From Chiloscyllium plagiosum (taxonomy: Eukaryota), in contig NC_057744.1 in the NCBI RefSeq assembly GCF_004010195.1, positions 18,789,107 to 18,853,106 of the forward strand: a stretch of DNA of 64,000 nt. The letters run 5' to 3'. Within the stretch, counting starts at the first letter, position 1. Each line of letters starts with the position of its first letter. Below are positions 1-63,584 of the stretch, one piece after another. Position numbers and translations under genes: made by a program. The notes below the pieces were generated by a model. The model saw nothing but the letters and a program-made list of their open reading frames with translations, made no database searches and was not told the DNA's origin.

Positions 1-644
1 CCACCAATTGCCGTGGTGGGATTCGAATCTGATCTCCGCACCATGACCTGGTTCGCTGGATTAATAATCCAGATGGAAAAGTGCGAGGCCATCGCTTACC
101 CAGCATCTCCAAGCAGCTCCATTGTCGATAGTGGATGTTGCAGTTGACATGGCTGCGTTTGAAGCACAGCTGTTTGAAAGGCAAATAAATATTTTGGCAA
201 AAAACACCATCCTTCTTAATTTTGCATTTATTAGAGGTTTGAGGATCAGATGAGCGTTTAGCGAAAATGTCCTTCGTCATGAGTTATTAACAGATTTCAT
301 ATCTGACAACAAATAATCAGCACAGGGAATCGTGTGCAGTCCATCATTGCAAATTGTTTAAAGTGAAACAGTGAAGAAGTCTTTATGTAGTAGTCGAGTG
401 CTGTTCAAAAAGTACTTGGGGAACTGTGGACAGTTTGTCCGTCATTCATATGGAAAGGTCTCCATGCCACAGAGAGACAACATAAAGGAGTTTCACGAGA
501 TTAATCCCTGCGGTAATAAGACCATGAGGAGAGTGTGAAGGAAATAACCTTTATCGATAAAAAGAATAACAGGTGATTGCAATCAAACTTGAGGGTTAAA
601 ACCAACACAAGAATATCAAAACAAATGCCAACACAAGAATATCT

Positions 645-13225: not shown

Positions 13226-15741
13226 GGCTCCAATGGCCATATTCACAAAATGTTACGTGACTTTGTCAAATTTAATTTGATCTTGCTCCACTGAATTGCC
13301 TTGCAATGCATCCGTTTGTTAAAAGTGCTGTACAAATGCAACTAGCTATTGAAGCACTTAAAGACATGATAGGGTGAGGAAATGTTATTTCTTTAACTGA
13401 ACATGAGCTGACAGAAGTTCTCCATTTATTTTGGGCAGATCAACCTGCAGAGTTCTTTCCATCACTTAGTCATCACTAAGTTTTTGCTGTGGAGTATCCC
13501 CTCGACTGGAAACTTGTCAGAGCAAACATTAACAATAGGCTTGAAATGCACAATGCAGGTCATCCCCTTTTAATACGGCACACATTCTTTATAGAATCTA
13601 GTTTTCAGACATTGAGTTTGTATCTATGAGGGAAAAGTGGCAAGAGAAAGAGAAGAAGCTGAGAGATTCCATCAAGCAAGTTTTGAAGTGTGATGTTCAT
13701 CAAAATAACCCTCTGCATTCAGTGGAATTAGAACCTATTGACTGATGACTTCTTTGTGTCTGGAAGCTGCCTGAAAAGATAAAGCAGCTTACTGCACAGC
13801 TGTTAGAAACGTAACCTCTCTGTTAAAACTGGTGGGTTGCTTATTATGATCACTGTTTTGAACAAGACCTTATGTACAGTGGATAAACACAAGTTCTCAT
13901 GCCTGAAATTTGATCAGGCCTTTTTGGAAAAAAACTTTGAAGGAGACAGGTTATGAAATAGCACAACTTGAAATATTTGTTGTTCCTAAAACTATAAACA
14001 CTATGTCAGGCTGCAATCTCCTTGGATGCTCGCATGAAAGACCATATTGAATCAATAATGTAACTGTTATAGATTTATTCTGTTGAACACTGACTAAAAT
14101 TACAACAATTAAAGCATATTATAAAGCAAATCAAAATACTTGTTTATTATTAAGATTATTTATCTTAGCTGCTTTACTCATTCTTAAGAAACAATGTGGC
14201 CAATTTTCTGAGGGTTGGTGATCTTATGCAGGTTGCCACACCACCTCTTTCAATAAAAGAAACAGGCTCTACATTTCTGATTGGAGATTGTGTCTTTCAG
14301 AAATGTAGACCAGTATTTCCATTCAGACTGCTGTTTTGTACCACAGGACCATCAAAGGAAGGTAAACCATGCTTCATTTTCACAGCATAAGCTGTCATAT
14401 TCAGAAAATATAAACATGTGATTACAGTGCCATTCAGTATTACAGTGATTACATGCAACATTGATATCTTTGCTTACCATCTCACCTCTGACCATTCTGC
14501 CAGAGGTGGTCAGAGTGATCCATTTGCTAGTTGCATCTCACTGACTGGGTGCTGTTTGGTACCTTATAAAGCTGCAATTGTTTTCCTGAGATCATAATGC
14601 CAAGTAATGTTTTACAATTTTTCCCTACCACTGCTATCTGTTTTTCAGTGTCCCTCTCGTGAGGTTTTCTGTTTATACCCTCCATTATACATCTTTCAGG
14701 CCTTGGTATTCATTTTCATTGCCCCCTGCTGGTGGGATGGGGGCTTCTCTCTACAATCTATAGCTATTTGTCTGAAAGAATTCCGCTAAATTGCATTAGT
14801 TTGTTAGTTGCACTTATAATTTCACTATGCCTACATGTTTTATTGGCAATTACAGAGCCTTTAATTATGGTGGGATCAGTCTCTTCCCTCTACACTTTAC
14901 TAAATAAAAAGTTTTCTCTTTCCTCCTAAGAGTTCCATGAGGCACTTCATTTTTTAATCTGATTGCCGTGAGTGTGAAGGTCATGATTCTGTTTGTGGAA
15001 TCTGCTGCCTCAACTAATAATTCTCTTAAGCCAGAGGCAGCACCAACAACTCCCCATTTAGGCCCTCGGACCCAGCACCAAGTTAGCCAACATCTTACAG
15101 CATTAACCCAGACAATAATGCCTGTTTTTCTAACCTTTGTCACTTACATTTCCACTTTATTTCAATAGCCCATTGTCATGCCAAACTAACCTTTAATAGT
15201 ATGTGTTGGAGATATCAATTTTGAAGCACATGCATGTCATTCAATAATCACAAGCTGATTATACATCTGATAAAGTTTAAGATTGGCTCATGCTTAACTG
15301 GCAACAGATTATGCATTTACTTTCTTGTAGCAGGTCCGAAACTGGTCCCACTGTTGGAAAATTCCCTTGTGTTGGCCAGCAGTATTCTGCCCATCTCTCG
15401 GCTTGCAAAGATGCTCAAATGGCAGTCAAGTGTCTGCTAATGTTGCTCTGCCAAGGCATTAGATTTTTATTGCATGGCCCCACCGCACATGCTCCCTCAC
15501 AGCACACTCAACATGGAATCATACTTCCCAGCTCTCATTCTCCACCTCCCCAAGTCAGTGACTCATGGTCCTCACTCTCAGATTCACTGGTAAAGCACCA
15601 GGTCTTGGGTTGAATGAAAGCATCAAGTTGTGTTACTCCTGCAATCATAGAAGTTCCTCTTGTACAGTGACTTCTGACAGATTCACTAGTGAGCAGCACC
15701 TTTCAAAATCTTTCTGTTTCACTTCCCTGTATTTTGTTGTG

Positions 15742-16262
15742 GAGGTACTGGTGTTGGACTAGGATGGACAAAGTCAAACATCACGTGACACTGGGTAAAA
15801 ATCCAACAGATTTATTTAAGACCTTAAGCCTTCGAAGCTCCTGCTCCTTCCTCAGGCAGCTAGTGAGAGGGAATACATCGGACACAGAATTTATAAGTAA
15901 AAAATCAAATGGTCATACAACTTATGTGAATGTATTGAACAAACCTGGATATCTATTAAGTCTTTAATCGGTTGGAATGGAGGTACAGGTTTTGATTGGT
16001 TAATATGTAAATCCCATAATTTCTTTCAAGTCACTGCCCCAAAATATCTTCAGGTTTTATCAGGATAAAGATGACACCCCCGGTCAGAAAATGCATTTTA
16101 GGTGTGAGGCCATGTTTCAAGTCTGTTTCTAACTTATCCTGGAGCCAGACTGGTTTTATTTCCAGAGTAGGAATTTTAAAAATGTCACCTTGATTGTCTG
16201 TCTACAGATCATGCGCTTTTTGAACAAAATAGAATGTATCTGCAAATACAAATCTGAATTTT
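15742..16262 (-). mobile_element. Penelope-like element 3' fragment (family B terminal repeat)
   Basis: Minus strand carries CTGAGGAAGGAGCAGGAGCTTCGAAG (degenerate hammerhead-like core) and the aaataaa.ctgttgga terminal segment shared with 27097-27306. Confidence 0.55.
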
Positions 16263-20323: not shown

Positions 20324-20544
20324 TTAGGTAGAGAGAGTCCATTCTAGAAGAATCCAAGCGAGGGTGGGGATGCTTCCTAGCAATATCCAGCTATGTCTGG
20401 AGTAGTCAGCAGAACTATCAACGTTACAAAAGTCGGTGGAGCAGCAAAGAATTTTTCTACCTCCAATGGTTATATCACTGGCATCAGCGGTACACTCCGA
20501 ATGATATGAACATTTCTTTGTGACCCTCACAATGCCAAGTCCAG
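20324..20544 (-). CDS. Ly6/uPAR protein, last exon with CCxxxxCN motif and GPI-anchor-type tail
   Basis: tattacag|(A)GLGIVRVTKKCSYHSECTADASDITIGGRKILCCSTDFCNVDSSADYSRHSWILLGSIPTLAWILLEWTLST*. With the previous exon this gives 10 Cys in LU spacing. Confidence 0.9.
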
Positions 20545-20893
20545 CTGTAATAGAATAAATAGATTAGGTGACCTTCTCATTGGTTGGTTTACATAACATG
20601 TTAAACATAATTAACATTAATCATTAAAGCTATTACTTGTTTAAATTGTATTCATCTGAAATGTTCCCCTTATCTAAATGGACAGGTGCTCGTGTGAAGC
20701 AGTGAGTAGCCCTGCTGTCTTTACATCAGAGGCTCCAGGTTCAAGGCCCACTCCTGGACCTGATGGCTATGAAAGGAGTGATCATAACAAGGCCAAATGG
20801 AGTGGTCATTAAGCTGGAAATCCTTCCTAAAGGCTTATGGGAAGAGCAGATGAGTTTCCTGGTCAGCCACGCTTGATGGGGACTGTCATCCAA

Positions 20894-20982
20894 GTCAAAA
20901 AATGTGGTGCTGGAAAAGCACAGCAAGTCAGGCAGCAACCTAGGAGCAGGAGAGTCGACGTTTCGGGATTTAGCCCTTCATC
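20894..20982 (-). mobile_element. Penelope-type terminal repeat fragment (family A)
   Basis: gtgctggaaaagcacagcaagtcaggcagc...gtcgacgtttcgggatttagcccttcatca. Confidence 0.7.
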
Positions 20983-21593
20983 ACTACAGTCTCTGATGAC
21001 TGTAAAATAAAGAGTCAACTATAACTGTACTCTAAGAAGAAGTACTGAGCATGTGCGTAAAGAATGATACTATAGTGACATTAAATCACACAGAAGTGGA
21101 GCTTGAATCTATCAGGTTCTAGAAGATGTGCTCTTTCATATCCTTTGTGCATTGTTATGTTCAATAAAGCCTGTTAACATTCATTGACCTGAGTAACTGG
21201 GGTAGTAGCATGGTGGCTCAGTGGTTAGCACTGGTAGTTCACAGCACCAGGGACACTTCTAGTCCAATGCAGTATCAGAGATGCTGTCTTTCATTAGAGA
21301 TAGTAAACCAAGAGTTCATCTACTGCCTGGGTGGATGGAAAAGATTTCTTAGTACTATTTCAAAGAAGAACAGAGGAGTTATCCATAATCTGCCCAATAA
21401 TTATCCTTGTATCAATATCAGCCAAAGAAAATCTCATCATTAACATATTTCTGTGTGTGGGAGTTTTCTGAAAACAAACTAGCAGCAGCATTTCCTATAT
21501 TGCAACTGTGATGTCAGGCCTGGTATAGGCATGTCAGTTTATGAACTTATACTCAATAATTATTGAAATTAGACACAAAAGTGCTGTTGAGAT

Positions 21594-22298: not shown

Positions 22299-23489
22299 AG
22301 ATGTTTAGTGCAAATCATGAGATGTCTGGTACGTGCACAGATAATATCAAGTCTCTACCGAATATCTGATTAAATATGATCTTAGGTATGGGAACTTCAC
22401 AAACATATGTAGAATTCACATGCCTCATTGTTCAAGAACGGACCAACATCTAATAAATATGGAGATTCTGGAATGGTTTTTCCATGTTTCACAATGGACA
22501 AAAGGCCACGACACTAAGCATTACCGACACTTCATTGTACCGTGATGGTTTCTCCTATCCAGTCTAGGCTGCATGTTCCTCAGAGGTGTTGACTAAGCAT
22601 TCATAGGTTCAGCCTTGGGGACTGCACCCAAGGATCTAGTGGATTGACTAGCATCATCAGTCATCAGGCAGTCTACAAACCAGACTTGAAAATGAGCTAA
22701 ATTCATCAAGCAGATCAAGTATTTCGTCTGTCGCAGTTTCAATTTCACCTGGAAGTCAACTCTCTAGATATTTGACTCCATGAAATGTCACCATTTGTTG
22801 TGCGTCGTTTGCTTTATTAGATCTTTACATCAATTTTAAATCACCACTGAAGAAACCACAGGCCTATGACCTGGGAAAATTGAAATTGTAATTCAAGTCC
22901 AAATTAACTATAATTTTTAAAAATGCAATATCAATATCCCATCTTCCTATGAGTGTATAAGACCAAATATGTAGTATTACATGAATTCAGGGGTACATAT
23001 GTGAGAATAACTAACCTTATTTTAAACTCACAAAGGCTGATGTTGAATGATTAATTGGAATATATATTCAAGGATAAAAATAGATATGTTTTTTTCAACA
23101 CAAAAGCGTTGCGAATATGGTCACTAAAAGAGCATATAAGTCTGTCTGTAACAGTTGCTACACAGCAAATGTCCTGGCTTAAAAATGCTTTTCAACATTC
23201 AATCATCATGAACAGCACTATATTGACATCAGACTTCCTTTTCCTTTCTTTGCTTTTCAATACATCTGGTTATTTGAATGATGCCATCTGAAATTCAATA
23301 GATACTTTCAGGAACTTTTAATATGGATATGAATTATTGGTAGAGACTTTCTCATTCTATAACAAACACATGATAGATGTTTGAAAAGAAGTATTCAGAA
23401 TGATCCCCAAGACAGGAAAATATTGGGATATAGCTATCTTTCTTATGCCTTTTATGTGAAATATTTTATCAAAAGTGAAAAATACTCAC

Positions 23490-23618
23490 CCTGGCTAAAT
23501 CCTACTGTCTTCACAGAGGTGAGGCACATCGATTTGTTAGATGGACATAACTGATATTGTGAATTGCATTCCTCTATTAATCTGGTGTTGAGACATTGGT
23601 AACATTTCAAGGTTTCAG
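23490..23618 (-). CDS. Ly6/uPAR (three-finger, LU domain) protein, middle exon
   Basis: tattacag|(A)ETLKCYQCLNTRLIEECNSQYQLCPSNKSMCLTSVKTVGFSQ+G|gtgagt. Phase 1-1 exon with the LxCyxC start typical of LU domains. Confidence 0.9.
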
Positions 23619-24373
23619 CTGTAATAGTAATCAAAGACTGATGGTAATACAATAAAACTCAGCAAGCATTCTGTGTGAGGAGCTGTGATGTCCTGATATT
23701 ATGTCATGAGCAAACTATAGAACATATTTTTGCGAGAGGTAATTTGGAAACCAAATCTATTGATATAAATCTCTGGACAGTAAAATTCCAGTTTTCCCAG
23801 ATTCATGCAGCAACAAATGCATGGAAGTAATTAGTAACTATGAATTTATCATTGAAACACCAGAATGAAACCAGGCACATACAAACACACACAGACACAC
23901 ACACAGACACACGTATACAAGTGCACAAACAAACAATCTCCAGGTTCAAGAGTGTCAAGCAGACCAAGCTATTCCCATGCACTTCCTACCCTGTCCTTTT
24001 GAGGTGTTGAGGGTCTGGGGGCATTCTATGATTCTATGTTACTAAAGAACTCTTGCAGAGTTGCTTAAAGGTACAACTTAACAGAGGATAGGAATGACAA
24101 CTCAAGACTCCTGGTCACATGGTTTACAACAGGATAGAGAGATGGGTATAGAGGGTTGGGGGTAACAACATTGAGTAAATAAGCAATCACAGCTGTGAGG
24201 AGGGATGATATAGTGGAAGGATCTAATGATATGGCTGGAGGGAGCTAAGGAACAGAAAAGAGGCAATCACATTGCTGGAGGTATACAACAGATGTCTAAG
24301 CAGTGAGAATCATAGAATCATACAGTACAATATCTTCAGCCCATTGAAGTCTGTACCACTGAAATATATACTA

Positions 24374-25518: not shown

Positions 25519-25923
25519 TACACCCCAATCAGCTCCCTCAAACCTTGTCTGCTCCAAATAAAACAACCTGAGCTTAAAACTGAAATGCTCTATCCCAGGC
25601 AACATCCTAGTGAATCTTGTCAGCACTTGCCGAGTGTGTGTGCTTATACACGTGAATGTATACTTGCATCCTCCTCCCAGTAAAGACAGATGTGAAATAT
25701 TTGTTTTACACTCTACCAATGTCCTCTGACTTCACGCCCCCTTGGTCTCTGATAGGCCTTGGCTTTCCCTAGTTATTACCTTTCCCTTGATATACTTGTA
25801 GAATATTTTAGAATTCTCACAAATCTCACCTACCAGTGTTTTTTGTGGAAGTAGAAGAGTAAATATGTAGGCAAGTTGGTGAGATTTGCAATAACTAGCA
25901 TGGTAATTGCAGGGGTATAATTT

Positions 25924-26120
25924 AGAGTTGAGAATGTAGTGCTGGAAAAGCACAGCAGGTCAGGCAGCTTCCGATGAGCAGGAGAATCGACGTTTCAAGA
26001 ATAAGGCCTTCATGAAACATCGATTCTCCTGCTCCTTGGATGCTGCCTGACCTGCTGTGCTTTTCCAGCAACACACTCTCGACTCTGATCTCCAGCATCT
26101 GCAGTCCCCACTTTCTCCTA
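25924..26120. mobile_element. Fold-back insertion of two inverted Penelope-type terminal repeats (family A)
   Basis: Arms at about 25924-25997 and 26013-26086 are reverse complements. Confidence 0.8.
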
Positions 26121-26317
26121 GGGGATTTAATTTATCCTGATATTAACTGGGATAAAATACAAACTCATCGAGGATAGAACAGGATACTTCCTAAATGATG
26201 AAAAGATATAAACAGTGGTGGAGCAAAGTTTGGATCACCAAAGGTCTAGTTACAGATTGTAAACAGTTGAAGAAAATAATTAAAAGACTAATGCTGCCCT
26301 TTATATCAAGTGGAATC

Positions 26318-26817
26318 NNNNNNNNNNNNNNNNNNNNNNNNNNNNNNNNNNNNNNNNNNNNNNNNNNNNNNNNNNNNNNNNNNNNNNNNNNNNNNNNNNN
26401 NNNNNNNNNNNNNNNNNNNNNNNNNNNNNNNNNNNNNNNNNNNNNNNNNNNNNNNNNNNNNNNNNNNNNNNNNNNNNNNNNNNNNNNNNNNNNNNNNNNN
26501 NNNNNNNNNNNNNNNNNNNNNNNNNNNNNNNNNNNNNNNNNNNNNNNNNNNNNNNNNNNNNNNNNNNNNNNNNNNNNNNNNNNNNNNNNNNNNNNNNNNN
26601 NNNNNNNNNNNNNNNNNNNNNNNNNNNNNNNNNNNNNNNNNNNNNNNNNNNNNNNNNNNNNNNNNNNNNNNNNNNNNNNNNNNNNNNNNNNNNNNNNNNN
26701 NNNNNNNNNNNNNNNNNNNNNNNNNNNNNNNNNNNNNNNNNNNNNNNNNNNNNNNNNNNNNNNNNNNNNNNNNNNNNNNNNNNNNNNNNNNNNNNNNNNN
26801 NNNNNNNNNNNNNNNNN
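26318..26817. other. Assembly gap (500 N)
   Basis: Run of N. Confidence 1.
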
Positions 26818-27096
26818 CCAACCTATTAATAGATGACACTTACCAGACTACTGATCTGATAGGTTAGCACTAAAATCTTAATCTCTTAATCATATACTTT
26901 AGGAAGACCACTAGATTATTTAATTGAATTAAATGCTCCCAACCAATACAATGGTATTACAGTTGTTTGCAATATAATTTAATTAGGAACAAGCAATTCA
27001 GCTACTTTGTTTTTAGAAATTAGAGTGTGAGAGGACAGAATTGGTGAAATCAATGTATGTGACCTTAGCCCTGCAAGTTGATTTCTTTTGAAATAA

Positions 27097-27306
27097 GTCA
27101 GGATTTACATGACATCAAGTTACAGTGCAACAGGTTTATTTGAAATCACAAGCTTACAGAGTGCTGCTCCTTCAAAAGGTGACTTCGCATGACGAAGAAG
27201 CAGCGCTCCAAAAACTTGTGATTTCAAATAAACCTGTTGGACTATAATCTGGTGTCATGTGACTTCTAACTTTGTCCACCCCCAATCGGATATCGGTACA
27301 TCCACA
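27097..27306. mobile_element. Fold-back insertion of two inverted Penelope-type terminal repeats (family B)
   Basis: caacaggtttatttgaaatcacaag / cttgtgatttcaaataaacctgttg inverted arms; 13-bp duplication TCTTTTGAAATAA at 27084-27096 and 27307-27319. Confidence 0.8.
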
Positions 27307-27612
27307 TCTTTTGAAATAATGCATCGCACCTGCTTATACTGTCCTCACAGGTAGTGAGTTCTACTATCTTTGCAGGCATTCTTTTCCATCACTCTCACAG
27401 GCACTGAGTTCTACAGTGCTCACAGGCTCTGTTTTCGATTGCTACTAAAGAGCAATGTTCCCAGGTTGCTGGCCCTTTGCTAGAGATAGAGTGGCCCATC
27501 GGTCTCATGGGTAGATTGCCAGTTCCAAGAAGGTGGCCTTCCAGCAAATGGCTGGATAGTGGCACTACACGGGGATTGTTGCATGATGCCAGTGCTGACA
27601 CCGGAGGGTTTA

Positions 27613-28308
27613 CAGAGGTACCTCGATTATCTGAATACCAATTATCTGAAAATCGGATTATCTGAAGGAGATCTCAAGGTCCTGATGGAAACATCACATC
27701 AAAGACGTGTTTCCACAGTGATCACGTCTTTTGTTTACAGTGATTAAACAGGCACCGTCTCCAAATGACTGTCTGCCCACCCTCTCTCTGTCCCACACTT
27801 TCCCTGGAGTTCTACACAGGGGTGTACCCTAAACCTCCCCCCCCCGTCCCTAGATAATCTCTACAACATTGCCCTGTACAAAGCAAAGGTGGAATCTGTC
27901 AAAAAGTTGCAGTTAAACATTGTGTGTGAGGCTGTGGCTGTGTGTGTGTGTGTGTCTGGTGTGTGTATGTTATTTGGAGACATACCCCACAAAGGCAACT
28001 TGCAGCAGTCTTGTTGTTGGTGTCCAGCCCAGCTGCCCCGGAGAGGGGGCGGGTATGTACGGGATTGGGGGCAAGGGGGCGGTGTTGGATGGAGTTGGGG
28101 CGGAGGGGCAGTTGTGGGTGGGGACGTGGAGTCGGGGGCAGGGAGGTTCGGCCTCGCGTCCTCTGTGTTGCTGCATTCTCCTGAATGGGGAGCAGACTTT
28201 AAAAACTCCGAGCCCCAGAGGAAAGGCATTTATTCGATTAACTGAATAATCAATTATCCGACTGAAATAGTGCCCGCTCATCACGTTCGGATAATCGAGG
28301 TTTCCCTA
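27613..28308. mobile_element. Non-autonomous Tc1/mariner (Tigger-like) DNA transposon
   Basis: Terminal inverted repeats CAGAGGTACCTCGATTATC / GATAATCGAGGTTTCCCTA, flanked by TA. Confidence 0.75.
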
Positions 28309-29278
28309 TATTTCCATTCTCCTGGCCCCAAAATGACTCTAAATTGCCTCATCCTGGCATCATCACCTAGGAAGTGCTACTTCCTGCATAAGAACCTGAA
28401 AACCATCCTGATGACTGAACCTCCAGCACTTCAACAAAATCTCACTCTGTATACAGGTAACAATCCTGCCTGGCCTCTCCTGAGGTTCATTCTTGTGCGC
28501 TTAATGAAAACAAGATGGAAGCCCGGGCTGCCCATGGCGATCTCCAGCAAGTAGAGTCCAAGCATCAAAGTTTGGAATTCTCATACCTACCTGCTACTTG
28601 TTTTAAATCATCGCCGAATCTATTTCTTCCCCCAGATGGTGTTCCAATATCTTTTTTATCAATATAAATTTACACTGCCAGAATTATTATACACATAATC
28701 AATAAATTCAGGAAAAAGCCTGCATTCTAACAACTTGAATTTATTTCTATATTTCCCTTCCCAGGACACCCACAAACCTTTTACAAGATGAGCTTCATGT
28801 CTCTAATTACAAATTGCTGGTGATTTTTATGACTTGTCAAAGATTAAATGGAATTCAGGAATGCATTACCTAGCACTACAGTACAATATGTACATGATAT
28901 ACATTATGTACAAAATGAATTAAACTGTTTTCCCCACAGAGACTGTTCTGTATTGACTAAACTGTGAAGTTTAAAGTCTTCCATTGTTCAATATTTTACC
29001 TCATGACTGTGCAAAATGAAAATCTAGCATGTCTTGCTTAATGTACACCTCTGGTTTCCAGCTGTGGTTTAATTCTGGGCCATCTGATCTAGCAATTACT
29101 GGAGCAGTTATTACAGCAATTAGTTGCTCTAATCTGTGTGCTTTCAGCACATGACCTGTTCAAACACTGCCTTAATTTTATTTTCTTTGTTAAATTCATT
29201 TTTGAGAGCCTCAAAACTTAGCACTTGAAATGCAGAATCATTGGATGAAATCTTAAACAGAAGGACACATGCAAAAGC

Positions 29279-29442
29279 TAGGAGAAAGTGAGGACTACAG
29301 ATGCTGGAGATCAGATTCAAAAGGTGTGGTGCTCGAAAAGCACAGCAGGTCAGGTAGCATCCGAGGAGTAGGAGTGTCAATGTTTTAGGTATAAGCCCTT
29401 CATCAGGAATGGGTTATTACTGATGAAGGGCTTATGCCCAAA
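29279..29442. mobile_element. Family A Penelope-type repeat with a short inverted hammerhead-like segment
   Basis: taagcccttcatcag is followed by ctgatgaagggcttatgccc. Confidence 0.7.
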
Positions 29443-29526
29443 ATGGCTGAATGGGCTGTTTCCACATTGTAGGGTTTCTATGATTCACCTTCATGATTGT
29501 TCTCTGAATGTCTCCAAGGTAATGGG

Positions 29527-29741
29527 AGAAAGTGAGGACTGCAGATGCTGGAGATCAGAGCTGAAAATGTGTTGCTGGAAAAGTGCAGCAGGTCAGGCAG
29601 CATCCAAGGAGCAGGAGAATCGACGTTTCGGGCATGAGCCCTTCTTCAGGAGTCTTCATGAGCCCTTCTTGAACATCGATTCTCCTGCTCCTTGGATGCT
29701 GCCTGACCTGCTGCGCTTTTCCAGCAACACATTTTCAGCTC
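29527..29741. mobile_element. Fold-back family A insertion with an intact hammerhead-like core
   Basis: Arms at 29558-29627 and 29672-29741. 15-bp duplication CTCCAAGGTAATGGG at 29512-29526 and 29739-29753. Minus strand reads CTGAAGA-A-GGGC-TCAT-GCCC-GAAA-CGTC. Confidence 0.85.
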
Positions 29742-30959
29742 CAAGGTAATGGGTCCAACTTTACAAAAAAAAGCATCAGTGTTCTGTTATGCTAGTAATG
29801 CTGTTTCAACTTATAGGTGCAAGCCTCTATGGTAAATGCAGTTCTGTTTCTAACTTCTGCATTTACTTAATCTACAAGGTTTTCATTACCTTTGCTGATG
29901 GTCAATATCACTGAACGCAAATGGCAGGATGATTGATGTCTATTGTTAGGTTTCCCCTACTGATTATAACTACAATATTAACAAGGAATGTCCATATTCC
30001 TTTAGCAATCAACTAGCCATGGGCCTAATTCAGCAGTTCTTAGTTACGGAAACTGGGGCCTTTTTGGACAGAACTGCAGTACCCTTTGGCTTCAGCAGTT
30101 TCAGTAAACTACTTTATCATAAAGGGTAAAAACAGCTAGATTGTTAGAGGCAATTTGACGATTCTATAGTCACAGCTAATTCATAAAGCTTTCTTATCTT
30201 TTAATTTTAAAGATTAATATTTAATATATTGCAAATACAATAAATAAATAGAAATATTCAAATATAGATTAGCTTCTTCAGTTAATGTCTTTTAAAAAGC
30301 AACTTATCTTTTGTTGAGAATTTTTTTTTAAAAGAAGGCCTACCAAGTACTTACAATTTTCTCTTCTGCTTACCTCTTCCATGGAATTATCTGACCTTTG
30401 CCCTATTATTACATACCTTATTTATATTGTAAGAGGAAAAAAGTACTGCTACAAAGTATCAAACATGGATAGAGTCAGAGTAATAAACAAAGTTTGAGAC
30501 TTTTAACATATTTTTATCAAGTTTTCTGACTTACTGAGTATTCACAATTTACTTTGCAATTCAAATTAGCACATCCTAGAATATTAGTGTTACTATGGCT
30601 ACATCTATGATGTAAGCGCTTCAGTTAGCTGTTTAAAATTAAATGCTGGGATAATGTCACATTACAAGGATTGGGCTTTAGCTGAAATGATTGTGATGCA
30701 ATTTAAGACCTAGATGAATTATGATGCCACACTCTTTCCTTGTCCTTGTGTTTAGAAGAATAAAACATTACAGCTCTGAAGTAGAGTCACATGGGACTCA
30801 ATACATTAATTCTCTCTCCAGGAATACTGCCTGAACTGCTGAGTTGCTCCACCATTTTGTTTTCCTTAATTTTTGATTTCAATGTTTACAGTATTTTGCT
30901 TTTAATACAGATTCTCTGAGCAGTTTGCCAACAACATGTCTTGGGGTAATTCTGAGGGT

Positions 30960-31345
30960 TAGCACATTGTACAATGGCTGGATACAAGACCTTATAAGGA
31001 GATGTTGAGTAGGTTGGGCCAGTACTATTTGGAGTTTAGAAGAATGAGTAGGAACCTTATTGAAACATGCAAGATTTTTAAGGGACTTGACAGGGAAGAT
31101 GCAGACAACATCTTGTGAGAGAGTCTAGGACCAGAGGAAATAATCTCAGAATGAAGGGTTACACATTTAAGGTAGAGATGAGGAGGAATTTATAGGGTAG
31201 TGAATCTGCAGAATTTTTATCACAGAGGACTGTCACAGCTGTGATATTAAGTATGTTCATTGCTGAGATAGAGAGTAAGGGAATCGAAAGTTATGGGAAA
31301 AAGGCAGGAAAATGGATTTGAACATTATCAGATCAGTCATCTGAT
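30960..31345 (+). mobile_element. Old CR1 LINE 3' fragment
   Basis: gagtttagaagaatgag...cttattgaaaca RT tail. Confidence 0.65.
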
Positions 31346-31359
31346 TGTATGTCCTTTCA

Positions 31360-32100
31360 TTTCTTTTAATTGGCTCTTCTTGGTCCTCCCAACAAACTGT
31401 GTAATTTCACACATGTCCACTTATTCAACCAGTCTATGTCCTCCTCTTGAAATCTCCCATTACCCTCCTAACAGATCACCCAAATCATGTCATCTGCAAA
31501 CTTTAAAACTACATCCTGAACAAACAAGTCCAGGCCATTAATAAACACCAAGGGTCCTATTACCAACCTTGGGTGCACTCACTACATTCCTTCCACCAGT
31601 CTGAAAAACAACCATTTACCACTAATTTGGTTCTTATGACTGTCAACGTTATATTCATGCTATCACCTTCCCTTTTATTTCATGGGTTTGACTTTTGCTG
31701 ACAAATCTATTATGTGGCATTTCATGAAATACCTTCTGGAAGTCCATATTCTCATTACCCTCATTTACCCTCTTTGTTATGTTCATCACTCAAATTAATA
31801 ATCTCAATTTGCCTTTATCCATACTAGCATCCTTTAATTAATGTACATTTGTCTACATATCTGATTTTATCCCAGATTATCATTTACTAAAGCTTTCCTA
31901 GTGTCAAGGTTAAAATAACTAGCCTGTAACTGTTAGACTTATTCTTGTATTCCTTTTTGAACAAGGTGCAAGCAATTGCAATTCTCCAGTCCTGTGGCAC
32001 CACTTTTAAGAAGATTCTGGTCACTACCTCAGTGATTTCCATTCTTATTCCCATCAGCATCCTTAGATGCATCTCCTCTGGCCTTGGTAATTTATCAACT
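31360..32100 (-). mobile_element. Old CR1 LINE RT fragment
   Basis: VPQDWRIA...LFKK...SYRLVIL on the minus strand. Confidence 0.65.
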
Positions 32101-32254
32101 TTGAAAATATCTTAATAAGTTATCCTTATTATGCACATATCAGAAAGGGTTGAGGATTCTGTTCAATTTCCCAGCCCTGTCATTTCCATTTGTTTCCAGC
32201 CTCCATTTTTAAATCCTATGTCCAACTCATTCATGCGCTCAAAGCCATTGCACT

Positions 32255-32548
32255 GTGGATGGCACAGTGGCTAGCATTACTGCCTCACAGTGCCAGTGAC
32301 CCAGGTTCAATTCCTTGGGTGATTGTCTGTGTGGAGTTTGCACATTCTCTCCGTTTTTGTCCAGATGCTCTGGTTTCTTCCCACAATCCAAAAGACGTGC
32401 AGGCTAGATGAATTGGCTATGTTAAATTACCCATAGTGTTAGGTGCATTAGTCAAAGGGAAATGGGTCTAGGTGGCTTACTCTTCCGAGGGTTGGTGTGG
32501 ACTTGTTGATCCCTAATGGCCTGTTTCCACACTGTAGGGAATCTAATC
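32255..32548 (+). mobile_element. tRNA-head SINE with LINE-derived tail
   Basis: A/B boxes; ends cctgtttccacactgtagggaatctaatct. Confidence 0.85.
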
Positions 32549-32771
32549 TTCGTTGAGGTGTCTAAATTCTCTCTTTCATGTTTAATTCTCCTGTCATTAC
32601 TTTTTAAAGCTTTTCTGAATTCATCCATTTTGCTGTCTGGCTTTAATAATATTCCAGGTCTTTCCATGAGCTCACTCTATTTGACTTCGTCCTTCTCAGT
32701 GATTTCTTTCACAGTCTCACATCTGCTTGTTTTCCATTTGAGTCATTCTTAACTCTTTCAATGTAAACGTT

Positions 32772-33112
32772 TCCTTTTTTTAAAAAATTTAACCCCCACA
32801 CTATCACTTAAGTGCGGTAGTGCTTATTTTTTCCTCAGCACCCATAGTGTGTGTGTATACGTGTGAGACACAGTGAAAGACACAAAGTGCACGAATCTTT
32901 ATTCAATTTCCACCACCAGGAAGATAGGAAAACACCCGAGTGGCCAGTGACAAGCAATGCCCTTCACATCGAAGGGCAATGCTGTGTGATCAAAACAGTG
33001 AAGGGGAGGGTAGGGACTAAATCAAAATAGAGTTGGAGGGGGAAATAATGCACTCCACTCCCCGGGGCGCCCACCTCTCCCTGAACAGCTCCAGGGTGTT
33101 GGTGGACACCGC
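32772..33112 (-). mobile_element. Tx1/L1-clade non-LTR retrotransposon 3' end
   Basis: Minus strand reads AVSTNTLELFRERWAPRGVECIISPSNSILI*, then a 3' UTR and A-rich tail. Confidence 0.6.
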
Positions 33113-35043
33113 AAAATGTTTCCTGTTATCTGTTAATTTGATGTCAACTTTCATCAAAACAGAACTTATTTAGATTATTAGGATCTGGAAGTAGAATGTA
33201 AACTCTCAGCTCTGTGAATATTTAACTGTTTGCTTCAATAACATAATAAGAAATAGGAACGGGAGAAGGCTGTTCAGTCCCGCGAGCCTGCTCTGCCATT
33301 CAAAAGATCAATAAAATGCAACATCGAACACATCTCCACAAGTTTGAAATTTAAAGAGTATCTGGTTACAGATAAGAATTTAAAAAGTTACAGTTTAAAT
33401 TCTTAAGAATCATGGAGGTGTTGACCTGGAACCACTATTGTTTACTTGGAGACTGATATTCTCAGATGTAGTGAAATCAGTTCTGAATAAATAGTTGTTT
33501 TCTGGCTTATTGTTTCACTGAACACTATTTTCAAGATGAGGAAGAAAGAGGGAGGTAGACTTCCTGTTTTTGCTATTGAAAATCGATTATCGATTATTCT
33601 TTCTGTCTGCTACTGTGCTAAGCAGCTACTAAAATATAGTAGATTTCTGTACTCCCAATTCTGGCTACTTTGTTTTTCTAAGCTGGATATTTACAGCTAA
33701 CCTTTCAATTCCAATATATGTGCAACTTTTCATAAAATTGTAAACTGAAAAGATGAGTTTCTTGAAGCCTAATTCTATCAATTTGTTTTGATGTCTCCAG
33801 TGGTTTTCTGAATTTACTTAACTTTGTGGGAAGATGATTGGTTTAGCTAATTTAGGTTAGTGATGTCTTTTTAAAACTATTTTAGGCTCTGAAAATCTCA
33901 GATTTAAAATCAAGTGATACAAGTTGACACTTCGTAGCCCATATTTACCATTCACATGACACTGCTTATATTAATAAAAGCATCTTCTAGTACAGACTGC
34001 TGATTATTTAATTTCACACATTTATTTCTTACTAACAGTTGTCACAATTACTGACATTTAAACCCTGAATTGGATAAAGAATTATTTGCTAGAATCAGTT
34101 CTCTTTATATTGCTAAATTTTTATTGTAGTTTTAGCAACAAACAAAATCAAAGCTGCAACAGTCACTTCTTACAAAGATAGCCTCAAGCTAAAATAGCCT
34201 AAAATCCAACAAAAAGACTGTGTAAAACTCAAAAATCAAACATAAGCATTGTTTTTCAAAAGTGATATTACTTAAACTACTCTTGATTGCACTACATTAA
34301 TTTGATTGAAATCTCACTAGGCTCCAGCAGATGCTTGCAGGCATTTGGAGGCAGGAACAATTACAACATTTAAAACGCATCCAGATGGGCATAAGAATAG
34401 AACGGCTTAATGGGCCAAATGCTGGCAAATGGGATTAGGTCAGATTGCGATGTCTGGATGAATTGGACCGAAGGGTCTGGTTTCCATGCTGAATGACTCT
34501 ATTCCTTGAGTATTTCATCACACAATTTGGAACCAGACCTATTTTACTGACATAAAATGTTAAATGCTTTCCTGTGGTAAGACTACAATGAATTATAGAA
34601 TTTAATGCTGCAACCCAGTGCAGCGATTCGTAATATTTTTATTTATTTCTAAACAGGTGAAATCTGTTATGTAACAGGATTATTTAAGGTGAAATCCTGT
34701 TGTAATGAGGGAATAACATTCTGTTATCATGGGAATTATTTTCACAACACAGCATTGTTTTCCTATTGTTTTATTCAATAAAAATAAGTTATTTACTTGA
34801 ATGCTAAAATAAGTAGGGCTAAATTTTGACAGCTAAATATGTACTTTTGTTATTATGCATATATTTCTTCATGGGCAAACTGAATGTGTTTGTCAAGTTT
34901 TAGTTCTGATATGTAACACTGGCAATGATATAGACACAATGTCTGACAGTACATCTTCATTTGAGACCAAGCTCTCTGACAGCAACACATCTGGCAAGAG
35001 AAGAGTATGGTAATAGAGAAATAAGCCTATGTTTGTAATGATG

Positions 35044-35169
35044 TTAGCTTCCTGCAGAGGGGGTATTTTCATGCAGGTTTTGTAGGGCTAGATCAGTCCA
35101 TTTCATATCTTGTTCATTAATAGATTCAGTCGTTCCTCCATTATCCTGTTCAGGTTCTGGAAGTTCACT
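35044..35169 (-). CDS. ANAPC13: ANAPC13 coding exon 2
   Basis: tctttgtag|SELPEPEQDNGGTTES...GS*; minus-strand AATAAA at 34770-34775. Confidence 0.96.
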   Translation of the reverse strand, partial: SELPEPEQDNGGTTESINEQDMKWTDLALQNLHENTPSAGS

Positions 35170-36852
35170 CTACAAAGACAAAGAAAGAGTGGAATTGTTA
35201 AGACTGCTGTCTTAGTTCATGAAACTAACTCCTGGGTTCCAGGGATTGTCCTATGGGGAAAGATTAAATACACTGGGCCTATGATCGTTTGAGTTTTGAA
35301 GAATGAAAGGTGATCTCATTCAAACATACAAATTTTTTACAATGATCAATAGGGCAGGTGGTGGAAGGATATTTTCCTGGCTGTGGTGCCTACAGGCAGG
35401 TACACAATCTCAAAAATATGAGGCAGACCATTTAGAACTGAGAAGAAAAGCATGGTCTTCACTGAGAAAATTGTGAATATCTGAAATTCTCTGCCCCCGA
35501 GGGCTGTGGAGGGTCAGTCATTGAGTATTTCAAAATTGAGACTGATAGATTACTACACATTAAACAAAAAGAGAAATATAGGAATAATGGAGGAAAAAAA
35601 AGTGGTCTGAAATAGGGCACCAGCCATGATCTCACTGAATGGTACAGCTGGCATGTAGGGCTAAATTACCTATGGGGAGAATGTGAGGACTGCAGATGCT
35701 GAAGATCAGAGTCGAGAGTATGGTGCTGGAAAAGCACAGCAGGTCAGGCAGCATCCGAGGTGCAGGAAAATCGATGTTTCAGGCAAAAGCCCTTTGTCAG
35801 GAATTTCTTCTGTTATGCCTCGACAGATTTTCTATGGCAACGGGCCACTTCATGCTTTAATTACCCAGGGGATACTAACAAGTAGAGCTTGCTTACTTCA
35901 ACTCCTAATGGTGTAGTATGTGACATTTCAACAAACAACTTCCTCTAAACAGAATTTATTTACAGAAAAAAAGGATGTTAACACCATAAAAAATTCCAGC
36001 ACGCTCTAGATGTTTAGTGCATATGGAGCAATTTAATGACTCTCACAAATTTCCCAATGACCTTCACATGAATGAACGTGGTGACACACATTTTTAAAAA
36101 ATAGATAGAAACACAGCAATACCAAATAATAAACAACAATTTAAGATTATAAACCATAAGACACAGCAGCCCATTGCATCTGTTCCACCATTCAACAAGA
36201 TCATAGATGATCTTATACCCCTCAAACTCCACTTTCCTGTCATTCCATCAACACCCTTTATACTTTTCCACCAGCTTCCCTTCTTGCTTCTTGGTTAAAT
36301 GTGTCTAATTCAGTGGCTGACTTTTCTGAGACAATTACAATCTTAAAAAAAAATCTAGAATCAATACAAAAAAAAAACTAGAAAAGTCTGCTTCGTTTGC
36401 CAAAATAGGAGGCAGTCATTCTCTTGCTTTCATTTTGCCACATACGTATAGAAAGTGAGGGCTGCAGATGCTGGAGATCAGAGCTGAAAATGTGTTGCTG
36501 GAAAAGCGCAGCAGGCCAGGCAGCATCCAAGGAACAGGAGAATCGACTTTTCGGGCATAAGCCCTTCTTTCCCGAAACGTCGATTCTCCTGTTCCTTGGA
36601 TGCTGCCTGACCTGCTACGCTTTTCCAGCAACACATTTTCAGCACATACGTATAGAGGCTGCTCTCACATTTTAACTGATTTTGCATTCCAAAATGATGC
36701 GCCTTCATACAATTATTATTAAGACACTACACAAGAACGGATTCTGTACATACTAGTGGTATTTCCACATCTTCATACGGCAGTTTGTCCTCACGCCATG
36801 CATCATCAATAAGGTCCAGAATTCTGCCATCTCTTTGTACTTCACTGTCCAT
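35044..36852 (-). CDS. ANAPC13: Anaphase-promoting complex subunit 13, spliced CDS, 74 aa
   Basis: Exons 36852-36754 and 35169-35044 join to MDSEVQRDGRILDLIDDAWREDKLPYEDVEIPL-SELPEPEQDNGGTTESINEQDMKWTDLALQNLHENTPSAGS*, recognisably vertebrate APC13. The intron is GT-AG, phase 0. The ORF track misses this gene. Confidence 0.97.
35240..35670 (+). mobile_element. Old CR1 3' fragment in the ANAPC13 intron
   Basis: gaagaatgaaaggtgatctcattcaaacatac RT tail. Confidence 0.65.
35676..35805 (-). mobile_element. Family A Penelope-type terminal repeat
   Basis: Same sequence family as 29527 and 36453. Confidence 0.75.
36453..36643. mobile_element. Fold-back family A insertion in the ANAPC13 intron
   Basis: Arms at 36483-36555 and 36571-36643; 14-bp duplication CACATACGTATAGA at 36439-36452 and 36643-36656. 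Confidence 0.85.
36754..36852 (-). CDS. ANAPC13: ANAPC13 coding exon 1 (exon starts at acceptor 36868)
   Basis: tacttcag acceptor, 16-nt UTR, ATG at 36852, donor CTA|gtatgt. Confidence 0.96.
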
Positions 36853-42351: not shown

Positions 42352-42421
42352 TCAACCCACTCCCCCCGATAAACCGTCCGGACCCTCACCAGTAAACGGT
42401 GCCCACTCCCTCCCTCCCTAG

Positions 42422-42737
42422 CTACGGTTCTCCCGGTCCCCCCGGTAAACGGTCCGGACTCTCCCGTTCACCCCGGTAAACGGTCCGGACTCTCCCGGTT
42501 CCCCCGGTAAACGGTCCGGACTCTCCCGGTCCCCCCGGTAAACGGTCCGGTCTCTCCCGTTCCCCTCGGTAAACGGTCCGGACTCTCCCGTTCACCCCGA
42601 TAAACGGTCCGGTCTCTCCCGGTCCCCCCGGTAAACGGTCCGGACTCTCCCGTTCACCCCGATAAACGGTCCGGACTCTCCCGGTCCCCCCGGTAAACGG
42701 TCCGGACTCTCCCGGTCCCCCCGGTAAACGGTCCGGC
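42422..42737. repeat. 31-bp GC/CpG-rich minisatellite, ~10 copies
   Basis: G(G/A)TAAACGGTCCGG recurs at 42444, 42475, 42506, 42537, 42568, 42599, 42630, 42661, 42692 and 42723. Confidence 0.95.
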
Positions 42738-42849
42738 CACATCAGTGAACAATGGGCTCGGGGACTGTGTTGTGGTGAACACTCTCCGGGATTGAGGCGA
42801 TGGTTTTTGTTTCTCTCCGTCCTTGAGCGAACAGCCCTTTATTTCGATG

Positions 42850-61467: not shown

Positions 61468-61840
61468 GACAGAAGTGGGTACTGCAGATGCTGGAAACCT
61501 AAGTCTAGATTGGAGAGGTGCTGGGAAAGCACAGCAGGTCAGGCAGCATCTGAGGAGCAGGAAAATTGACATTTCGGGCAAAAGCCCTTCATCAGGAATG
61601 AAGGCAGGGATTCTCAGGGGTGGAGAGATATATGGGAGGGAGGTGGGGCTGGGGAGAAGGTAGCCAAGAGAACAATAGATGGATGGAGGTGAGGATGAAG
61701 GTGATAGGTCAGAGAGGAGGGTGAAGTGGATAAGTGGGGAGGAAGATTGGCAGGTAGGACAGTCATGAGGATGGTGCTGACCTGTAAGGTTGGAACTGGG
61801 GTAAGGTGAGGGGAGGGGAAATGAGGAAAATGGTGAAGTC
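61468..61840 (-). mobile_element. Family A Penelope-like 3' fragment with a hammerhead-like core
   Basis: Minus strand CTGATGAAGGGCTTTTGCCCGAAATGTC, preceded by a pyrimidine-rich UTR. Confidence 0.8.
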
Positions 61841-63584
61841 CAGAGTGAACAGGATATCTGTTCTGATATCCTGTTCACGCTGAGAGCTGGTTCTCAGGAA
61901 GCTGGATCAGTGTCAAGGACTCTTCATTGTGTTAGGGGACTGACTCTGTGCCGGCTGGGCCAGTCAGTGTGTACTGTTAACCTGGAACAATGAGGAAAGC
62001 CCTGGCTGACCAATATAACCAGGAGATTTAGAGTCTCCTCAGTTTAGGGGACTGGCTGGGCCATAGTCAGTGTGTTTCTGCTGTTGTTGGTTTCTGCTTT
62101 TCTGGGGGAAACCTGGTTCCTAAATTGGCTGGTTTACAAAAGCCCTTTTGTTAACTGGTATTCCTTTTTTTTATTGAGGACTGATTTCTAAACTGCCTGA
62201 CCTACACAGTCAGTGTGTTTCAGGTGTAACTCTGTTCTCATTAGGGAACTGTTGTTTCATTGGCTCGCTACAGCATGTGTGTTACTGTTTTCTCTTTTAG
62301 TTTGAGAAAAGGACTATGTTGATTTTTGTGGCAGGGCTTAGCCCTTGCACTGTTGTTTTCTTTGTTCTTTTGCATGTGTTTTCACTTCTTTGATGTTTCA
62401 ACTGAGCACTTTCCAGATGAGCTGTTCCTGTGGGTAGGCTTGGCCCTTCTTGGTAGACTTGGCCTCAGTAAAGATTGAACATGTGTGTGTGTGCTGGGAC
62501 GGAGCATTTGCTGTGTCCTGGGGTTCGGGAGTAGACTCTGTCTTCGGGAGTGGACCAAACCCCTGTGAGTTCACTGCACCTTCACAATGTACTGTGTTCC
62601 TGTGAGTGGGCCTGGTTCTTTGTGGATAAACCAGGCCTCTATGTAGACTGAACACCTGTGTGTGTGTGTGTGCTGTATAATGTGTATTAGCTGCCTTCAG
62701 GAGTGGACTCTGCCTTTGGTTGTGGTCTCTATCTCTGACAATGCATTCTGCATACTGGAGTGGAGTCTATTCTTGGGAATGGATTCTACAATTTGAAGAG
62801 AATTGTTTATGGTAATGGACTCTGTTTGTTGGTAATTGACAATATCTTGTTGCTTGTTGGGTTTATCATCTGCACTGTCTTGTGTATCCCTGGGTCTGGC
62901 AGGCCTCGCTGTGAGCTGGGAGGCTCATAGCTCGTCCTGAAAGCTGACACCCTGAGAGCCGGAGGGTGGATTGGCCATCCTGTGAACCGAAAGGTGCGTA
63001 GTCTGCCCTGAAAGCCGGTAGGTGGGTAGGCCACCCTGGTGTCAGTCGTCCTAAGAGCCAGAAGGTGGGTAGGCTGATCTGACTGCTCTTGTCCCGAGAA
63101 GGGATAATCCAGACGGGCTGTCCTAGAGATGGCCAGGTGTGTCAGAGTGGCCAAGAGCCAGAACGTGCATAGGGGCAGTCTGAGATCTAGAAGGCTTGTG
63201 GGCCGCCCTGTGTGCCATTGTCCCAGGAAAGAGGACAGACTGTCCTAGAGGTGGCTGGAAGGCATGTCAGGGCAATCCACAGGCCGGATAGTGTGTCAGG
63301 TTGGGAGAGAGCCAGATGGTATGTAGGGGCAGACTGAGAGCCAGAAGGCAGGTAGGCCATTCTCAGCGCTGTCACCCAGGGCAGGTACCAGGGTGGGCTG
63401 TCCTAGAGGTGACCAGAAGGTGCAAAGGGTGGTTAGGGAAGCCAGAAGGTGGGTAGGCCATCCTGATCAATGTCAGCTTGGGGGTGGGGGGTTGGTGGGA
63501 AACAGGATGGCCTGTCCTAAAGGTGACTGGAAGATGTGTCAGGGCAGGCCGAGAGCCGGAAGGGGCATGGGGCGGCCTGCCTTT

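Follow-up and report, generated by a model that had tools for sequence, protein, structure and literature searches.

Short fold-back repeats in the Chiloscyllium plagiosum genome as insertions of Penelope-like retrotransposons, probably primed from both target strands

How a short stretch of shark DNA came to hold four hairpin-like repeats of about 200 bp is the question raised by a 64,000-nucleotide region of the Chiloscyllium plagiosum genome (NC_057744.1, positions 18,789,107 to 18,853,106 of the forward strand; this whole stretch is called the window, and coordinates refer to it unless another contig is named). A first-pass annotation, made from the sequence alone, had described four inverted pairs of Penelope-type terminal repeats with one architecture and stems of roughly 70 bp, and these fold-backs (E1 to E4) were confirmed at their places, with stems of 70 to 79 bp that are 81 to 97% complementary. 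They are real and common products of known elements, the Penelope-like elements (PLEs), and represent the extreme of a known type of PLE insertion, lacking an open reading frame (ORF), rather than a new class. They are probably one-off, dead-end insertions of two retrotransposons encoding a Penelope-like reverse transcriptase (RT) and a GIY-YIG endonuclease (EN), formed when both strands of a staggered cut of ~14 bp primed near the 5' end of the RNA.

Each element consists of two inverted copies (arms) of a pseudo-long terminal repeat (pLTR), and the arms are unequal, one of them carrying a tail of 34 to 36 nt at its outer end. Positions in the pLTR were numbered with the C of the CUGA core as 0, the predicted cleavage falling between +27 and +28. 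E1 (25924..26118, plus strand, family A) joins a tail-less inverted arm (25924-26011, +5..+93) to a tail-bearing arm (26014-26118, +20..+124); its stem pairs 25924-26001 with 26009-26086 (78 nt, 88% complementary), and its target duplication is a degenerate one of 14-15 bp (25911..25924 and 26120-26134) with 7 exact bases within. E2 (27097..27306, plus strand, family B) has the same order of arms, with decayed hammerhead cores, a stem of 79 nt (27095-27173/27194-27272, 81% complementary) and an exact duplication of 13 bp (27084..27096 and 27307-27319). The remaining two are young family-A copies on the minus strand. E3 (29527..29741) has its tail arm at 29525-29652 (-2..+124) and its tail-less arm at 29672-29741 (+22..+91), with a ~20-nt junction insert duplicating adjacent arm sequence, a stem of 70 nt (29558-29627/29672-29741, 97% complementary) and an exact 15-bp duplication (29512..29526 and 29739-29753). 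E4 (36453..36643) combines a tail arm (36450-36569, +3..+122) with a tail-less arm (36571-36643, +17..+89), a stem of 73 nt (36483-36555/36571-36643, 96% complementary) and an exact 14-bp duplication (36439..36452 and 36643-36656). The three exact duplications, and the degeneracy of that of E1, agree with the earlier description; its hammerhead-like cores held in part, in that the pLTR does carry a minimal hammerhead, intact in E3, while E1, E2 and E4 retain remnants without an intact core. The E3 hammerhead, of minimal type I and the sole intact one in the window (29622..29649, minus strand), comprises CUGAAGA, a 4-bp stem II, GAAA, a palindromic ACGU and a GUC site, and its stem I is just 2 bp (feature criteria from PMC4209133).

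On the evidence of their reading frames, both repeat families are the terminal repeats of related endonuclease-bearing PLEs with RT and GIY-YIG domains. E1 to E4 themselves contain no ORF, and some family-A copies extend upstream through a pyrimidine-rich untranslated region (UTR) into coding sequence, for which a protein search gave 123,676 candidates. A family-A frame of 649 aa, lying 157 nt upstream of the repeat, matched the Pfam families RVT_1 (E 2.5e-06) and GIY-YIG (E 3.2e-04), both slightly below the curated cut-offs, and RVT_1 scored above its cut-off in two further family-A copies. Long family-B copies run into a homologous frame, fragments of which are 23-38% identical to the family-A protein (E down to 1e-23). 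No Pfam match was obtained for four family-B fragments (0/4) or for linker and EN fragments by themselves, and a PDB sequence search with the family-A protein gave no match. A CxxxxCxxC cysteine-rich linker lies between RT and EN in both families and would place them in the Neptune/Nematis type by the Zn-finger-like motif criterion of PMC8557442. Because the parent proteins are homologous, the architecture shared by families A and B was inherited, and the supposed convergence of two unrelated families on one form falls away. The pLTR and tail were also found in front of the ORF, in copies L207 and L233, where the tail continues into the N-terminal coding region, and such tail-to-ORF junctions had 176 exact matches genome-wide. 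L233, an internally deleted copy (about 4,998,500-4,999,100 of contig C1), shows a textbook layout of inverted arm, pLTR, tail, ~340 nt of ORF start, and a second pLTR and tail.

Abundance and orientation were assessed genome-wide and in a blind sample of one hundred 10-kb stretches placed at round coordinates, with 959,122 non-N bases in all. The exact two-arm pattern of family A occurred 6,966 times head-to-head against 154 times tail-to-tail (45:1), an imperfect control in that the two patterns had spacers of equal width over different ranges; the exact head-to-head pattern of family B occurred 1,385 times. Among 197 family-A arms in the blind sample, 43 head-to-head pairs, 1 direct pair and 0 tail-to-tail pairs were found, and inverted pairs are accordingly more common than chance adjacency, as had been proposed. 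This corresponds to 45 family-A fold-backs per Mb (95% range 32-60); extrapolated to an assumed ~3.4 Gb of non-N sequence, the genome would contain roughly 110,000-205,000. Their sizes were narrowly distributed (median 206 bp; 38 of 43 at most 300 bp), and six family-B fold-backs were counted by eye in the same stretches. The density in the window is ordinary (4 fold-backs against 3.2 expected per 64 kb). A minimal hammerhead descriptor matched 61 times in the blind stretches and 0 times in each of 10 shuffles, which together with the RT and GIY-YIG frames bears out the assignment of the repeats to Penelope-type pLTRs with minimal hammerheads; cleavage activity is predicted. Rfam gave no hammerhead family match, with only weak miRNA-like scores from the stems. 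Many of the tail-to-tail pairs consisted of one tail-less and one tailed copy ~15 nt apart, and may represent insertion beside an existing pLTR.

The anatomy of the insertions was resolved in a young family-A subfamily, a 46-nt anchor of which occurs 35,696 times genome-wide. The first 100 anchor matches recovered on contig C1 gave 87 insertions, 49 of them fold-backs and 38 solo copies (solos); 9 solos with an assembly gap (N) upstream were left out of the counts of 5' ends and duplications. Their 3' ends were bimodal, at +88..92 and +119..125. Exactly one arm carried the tail in 47/49 young fold-backs and in 39/43 of those from the blind sample, and 22/38 solos started at the tail base. Target duplications of 11-20 bp (median 14 bp) flanked 40/49 fold-backs and 15/29 solos, with none in shifted-flank controls. 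The two arms of one element agreed at six subfamily-diagnostic sites (for example, 69/75 compared with 37.5 expected). One tail, one duplication and concordant arms indicate that each fold-back is a single insertion event from a single source.

Junctions between the arms varied in their coordinates across the 49 young fold-backs: 24 had an overlap of 1-4 nt, 3 were blunt, 13 had inserts of up to 5 nt and 9 had inserts of 11-15 nt, most of these partly derived from arm sequence close by, a pattern that resembles polymerase-theta end joining. The tail-less arm extended beyond the tail arm by more than 3 nt in 22/47 young and 24/39 blind-sample fold-backs (E1 among them), and both arms ended within 3 nt of each other in 13/47. 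With one mismatch allowed, the E3 junction occurred once in 3.56 Gb, and a second idiosyncratic junction occurred twice, 114 kb apart on one contig. For these two junctions counted genome-wide, no shared-junction family of the kind expected from amplification as a unit, as in miniature inverted-repeat transposable elements, was found, and no tandem arrays were seen among the 197 arms.

Mapping of the breakpoints relative to the hammerhead motif showed that they are non-random, as the first-pass annotation had supposed. The 5' starts fell at -7..+9 in 88/126 young arms and in 20/29 solos, compared with just 5/126 arms at +26..+32, around the cleavage site, where no clear second peak was present (0 of 227 arms at +28, five at +29). 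Since solos stop at the same place, the pile-up reflects the template rather than the act of folding back. Fold-back arms share a 5' stop located 3-9 nt ahead of the hammerhead core; the match of short copies to the element extends to -4/-5 in family A and to -8/-9 in family B. In long family-B copies a TATAAA starts at -40 in 6 of the 11 placed, ~31 nt upstream of the stop, and long family-A copies have a TTTATC motif at -35/-37 and an initiator-like TCATTC at the stop, as judged against the promoter consensus. The 5' end was examined in 20 ORF-bearing copies: 5 start at -6..0, 12 are truncated within the pLTR, and 3 reach -18 to -58, none going further; the inverted partners of ORF-bearing copies end at -8..+2 in 7/12. 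Five copies (L067, L096, L211, L301 and L313) end at -38 to -71, often in both arms, a hint of minor upstream RNA starts.

These features would be accounted for if a PLE endonuclease made a ~14-bp staggered cut and both nicked strands primed reverse transcription on the same RNA, one 3'-OH starting at the tail end (~+124) and the other at the tail base (~+89). Each cDNA would copy 90-125 nt and run off the 5' end of the RNA, that is, the predicted transcription start, after which the two cDNA ends would be joined through 1-4 nt of complementarity, often drawn from the small inverted repeats of the hammerhead, or through short templated inserts. Extension of one strand only would leave a solo copy of 95 or 129 bp, and priming at the 3' pLTR would give the familiar long insertion with inverted ends; the ribozyme would mark the place without cutting the template that is copied. 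An anole PLE protein, predicted to form a dimer, nicks and extends both strands in vitro, with two internal start sites that bound the tail and with uncleaved RNA as template (PMC11167929). A broader proposition is that PLE integration is normally two-ended on one RNA, an RT-EN dimer cutting the strands ~14 bp apart and assigning the tail-end start to one and the tail-base start to the other, so that priming at the 5' pLTR yields strong-stop-like cDNAs welded into a hairpin; we consider the case for it evenly balanced. If true, a single rule would underlie three features of all EN-bearing PLEs, namely their tail, their inverted pLTR and the boundary of the pLTR; its outcome in this genome would be over 100,000 near-perfect stems of 70 bp, some of them within host introns.

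Several observations weigh against two-strand priming with run-off. The anole protein showed no difference in start sites between strands in vitro (PMC11167929), so that strict pairing with one tail is proposed from the genomic copies. RNA 5' ends are predicted from copy ends, whose position in the alignments may be off by 1-3 nt, and assembly gaps often interrupt the long copies. The long copies compared for promoter motifs had been picked by the motif itself, and the TTTATC of family A is no canonical TATA box. An extra G before the stop, a candidate for a cap-derived base, was present in 3/8 solos starting at -4 (two of these inside the duplication) and in 7/11 fold-back arms, where the partner arm supplies a G regardless, counts that are not decisive for a cap-derived origin. 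No partial-tandem copy with a long upstream 3' UTR was found, as 0/20 examined of the 176 tail-to-ORF matches keep more than 58 nt upstream. Arm concordance may partly reflect later gene conversion, and the young set was selected by its 46-nt anchor. Finally, in family A the stop falls on the 5' strand of stem I of the hammerhead (-4..-1), where a structural stop is possible.

That coincidence is the starting point of the closest rival, in which both strands prime but the cDNAs halt at a roadblock, a folded or protein-bound hammerhead inside a longer RNA; the PLE protein is also reported to assist hammerhead folding (PMC11167929). We hold this to be unlikely, because independent roadblocks predict uncoupled arms, whereas both arms pass -30 in 5/92 fold-backs compared with 0.53 expected, and 6/9 duplication-verified long insertions have a long partner arm. 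Moreover, family B stops at -8/-9, beyond its stem I of 3-6 bp and ~31 nt below the TATAAA, and ORF-bearing copies start at the same place; the stop site is therefore favoured as a predicted RNA end. Self-priming, in which a single cDNA, or antisense RNA as proposed for rotifer PLEs, folds at the hammerhead palindromes and copies itself, is argued for in PMC3846280 (on an antisense template), and recurrent junctions at (-3,+5) in 4/49 and (-1,+9) in 3/49 would fit such a small hairpin. Folding of one cDNA, however, cannot make about half of the cases, since the folding cDNA must be the tail arm and reach furthest, whereas the tail-less arm reached further in the proportions given above; the 13/47 pairs ending within 3 nt of each other leave too little room for a loop, and solos share the 5' stop without folding back, many starting at the tail base. 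The antisense-RNA version survives the test of reach but leaves both the shared stop and the one-sided tail unexplained, and we regard self-priming in either form as distinctly improbable. Template switching by the RT at the ribozyme hairpin, which the first-pass annotation had put forward as a cause, is not supported, given the same observations of solo stops and arm reach.

That annotation had also suggested a hairpin or retrozyme-like class without coding capacity; such a class would be transcribed and inserted anew as a whole. Its very high copy number, narrow size, one idiosyncratic junction found twice, and the existence of PLE-derived non-autonomous retrozymes (bioRxiv 10.64898/2026.07.22.740005) would suit this idea, but of the two junctions counted that of E3 was unique and the repeated one lay at two sites on a single contig, direct pairs were outnumbered 43 to 1 by inverted ones with no tandem arrays, three of the four window copies have no intact core, and the stumps have lost the predicted promoter; such a self-propagating class is very improbable. 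Assembly artefact or chance neighbourhood, which the many assembly gaps near these repeats might suggest, can practically be dismissed given the locus-specific 11-20 bp duplications and the 45:1 orientation bias. In addition, contigs from another individual span both junctions of E2, and contigs from a related species span the right one; E2 therefore predates the split from that species. The E3 junctions were entered by only 21-24 contig letters (rule: 31) and were not counted as bridged, and no empty site was found among the compared contigs of the other individual and the related species (window 26900-32200).

At least one of the four insertions lies within a host gene. The first coding exon of ANAPC13 (Apc13; 36754..36852, minus strand; Pfam Apc13p, E 8.5e-08) and the second (35044-35169, minus strand) bound an intron, and E4 lies 110 nt inside it; being within the transcribed ANAPC13 precursor, E4 is predicted to form a 73-bp stem in that pre-mRNA. 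The same intron also holds a solo family-A pLTR with tail (35676..35802, minus strand), which begins just in front of the hammerhead core and could pair with the antisense arm of E4. RNA data were compared for window 26900-32200 (E2 and E3), using ~2 in 100 of a single-cell run (X21; 13 million records). In this one shallow run the unique sequence beside E2 and E3 had no depth, depth being confined to repeats, and 97% of placed reads continued into other loci, which gave no RNA support for the seeding of double-stranded RNA into transcripts that the first-pass annotation had suggested; a second RNA run (X22) placed no reads on this interval. The counts of A>G/T>C changes in X21 (11/13) were in line with those in a DNA run (X4; 14/14), and are uninformative on editing. 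At 27194-27247, 91 reads of X21 had poly(A) just after an AATAAA inside the family-B pLTR, and 76 X21 reads shared one upstream sequence from another locus; a family-B pLTR apparently acts as a polyadenylation site at some genomic locus.

Further copies in the window comprise a damaged fifth family-A fold-back (29281..29444, minus strand) with a complete tail arm and ~24 nt of the second arm, and a solo tail-less family-A pLTR (20899..20983, minus strand). Two others retain 3' UTR sequence of their element upstream of the hammerhead: ~250 nt in a family-A copy (61473..61850, minus strand) and ~330 nt, including a TATAAA box, in a family-B copy (15738..16190, minus strand). Tandem arrays were noted at 42367-42798 and 863-1675, with periods of 31 nt and ~201 nt. 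Comparison of the 150 longest among 507 unmasked frames with Pfam identified, besides Apc13, an exon of the NNMT/PNMT/TEMT family (NNMT-like; 12559-12774, plus strand), two exons of a Ly6/uPAR/CD59-like gene (20327-20563 and 23455-23658, minus strand) that may hold E1 in an intron, and two EVE-domain exons (57403-57630 and 58934-59119, plus strand), presumably THYN1-like.

The origin of the PLE tail and inverted repeats is stated as open in PMC8557442 and PMC11167929. Tens of thousands of copies of the young subfamily, nearly identical to one another, serve as a fossil record; it speaks for priming from both strands rather than self-priming, and predicts the RNA start. On this basis, short perfect hairpins of the order of 100,000 would be expected in cartilaginous-fish genomes, and these might burden introns with double-stranded RNA. 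The fold-backs are ordinary as a class; what makes them valuable is the trace of PLE integration that their ends preserve.

Two-strand priming has a counterpart in LINE-1 twin priming, in which both target nicks are said to prime on the RNA and the cDNAs to be joined head to head by microhomology (Ostertag and Kazazian 2001). There the second primer reportedly anneals at a variable internal site, giving an inversion without duplication; in the fold-backs, by contrast, neither start varies, and one and the same sequence is present in both arms. Within PLEs, the inverted pLTR, one-sided tail and target duplication have already been described (PMC3846280, PMC8557442, PMC2377424, PMC8969392). Described insertions of EN-bearing PLEs (Pen2a_Av in PMC3846280; PMC8557442; Penelope of D. 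virilis in PMC2377424) share with the shark elements a head-to-head inverted, 5'-truncated copy, a tail at one end (optional, 30-40 bp), a target duplication, a parent with RT and C-terminal GIY-YIG, and a hammerhead in the pLTR. The shark fold-backs differ in having no ORF between the repeats, in making up 49/87 of young insertions, in 5' ends that pile up at one site, and in duplications with a median of 14 bp compared with 8-10 bp in rotifer examples (PMC3846280). No body-less fold-backs, two-strand priming or run-off boundary in PLEs were found in a literature search covering the main text of open papers. The minimal PLE hammerheads of PMC4209133 have the same core with palindromic positions 15.2-16.2, and one sentence there mentions Schistosoma hammerhead pairs 100-700 bp apart on opposite strands, which in the sections consulted are not analysed for tail, duplication or breakpoints, sharks not being named. 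Non-LTR retrozymes (bioRxiv 10.64898/2026.07.22.740005) are likewise short, non-coding, hammerhead-bearing and PLE-related, but form head-to-tail tandems thought to move via circular RNA, whereas the elements described here are head-to-head, dispersed and individually formed. The closest biochemical parallel is Poseidon PAc of the green anole, which in vitro has the two internal starts bounding the tail, extension of both strands and an uncleaved RNA template, with the hammerhead located some 110 nt further upstream than the start sites (PMC11167929); that paper leaves inverted copies unexplained, and the shark elements differ from PAc in their cysteine-rich linker, apparently of Neptune/Nematis type.

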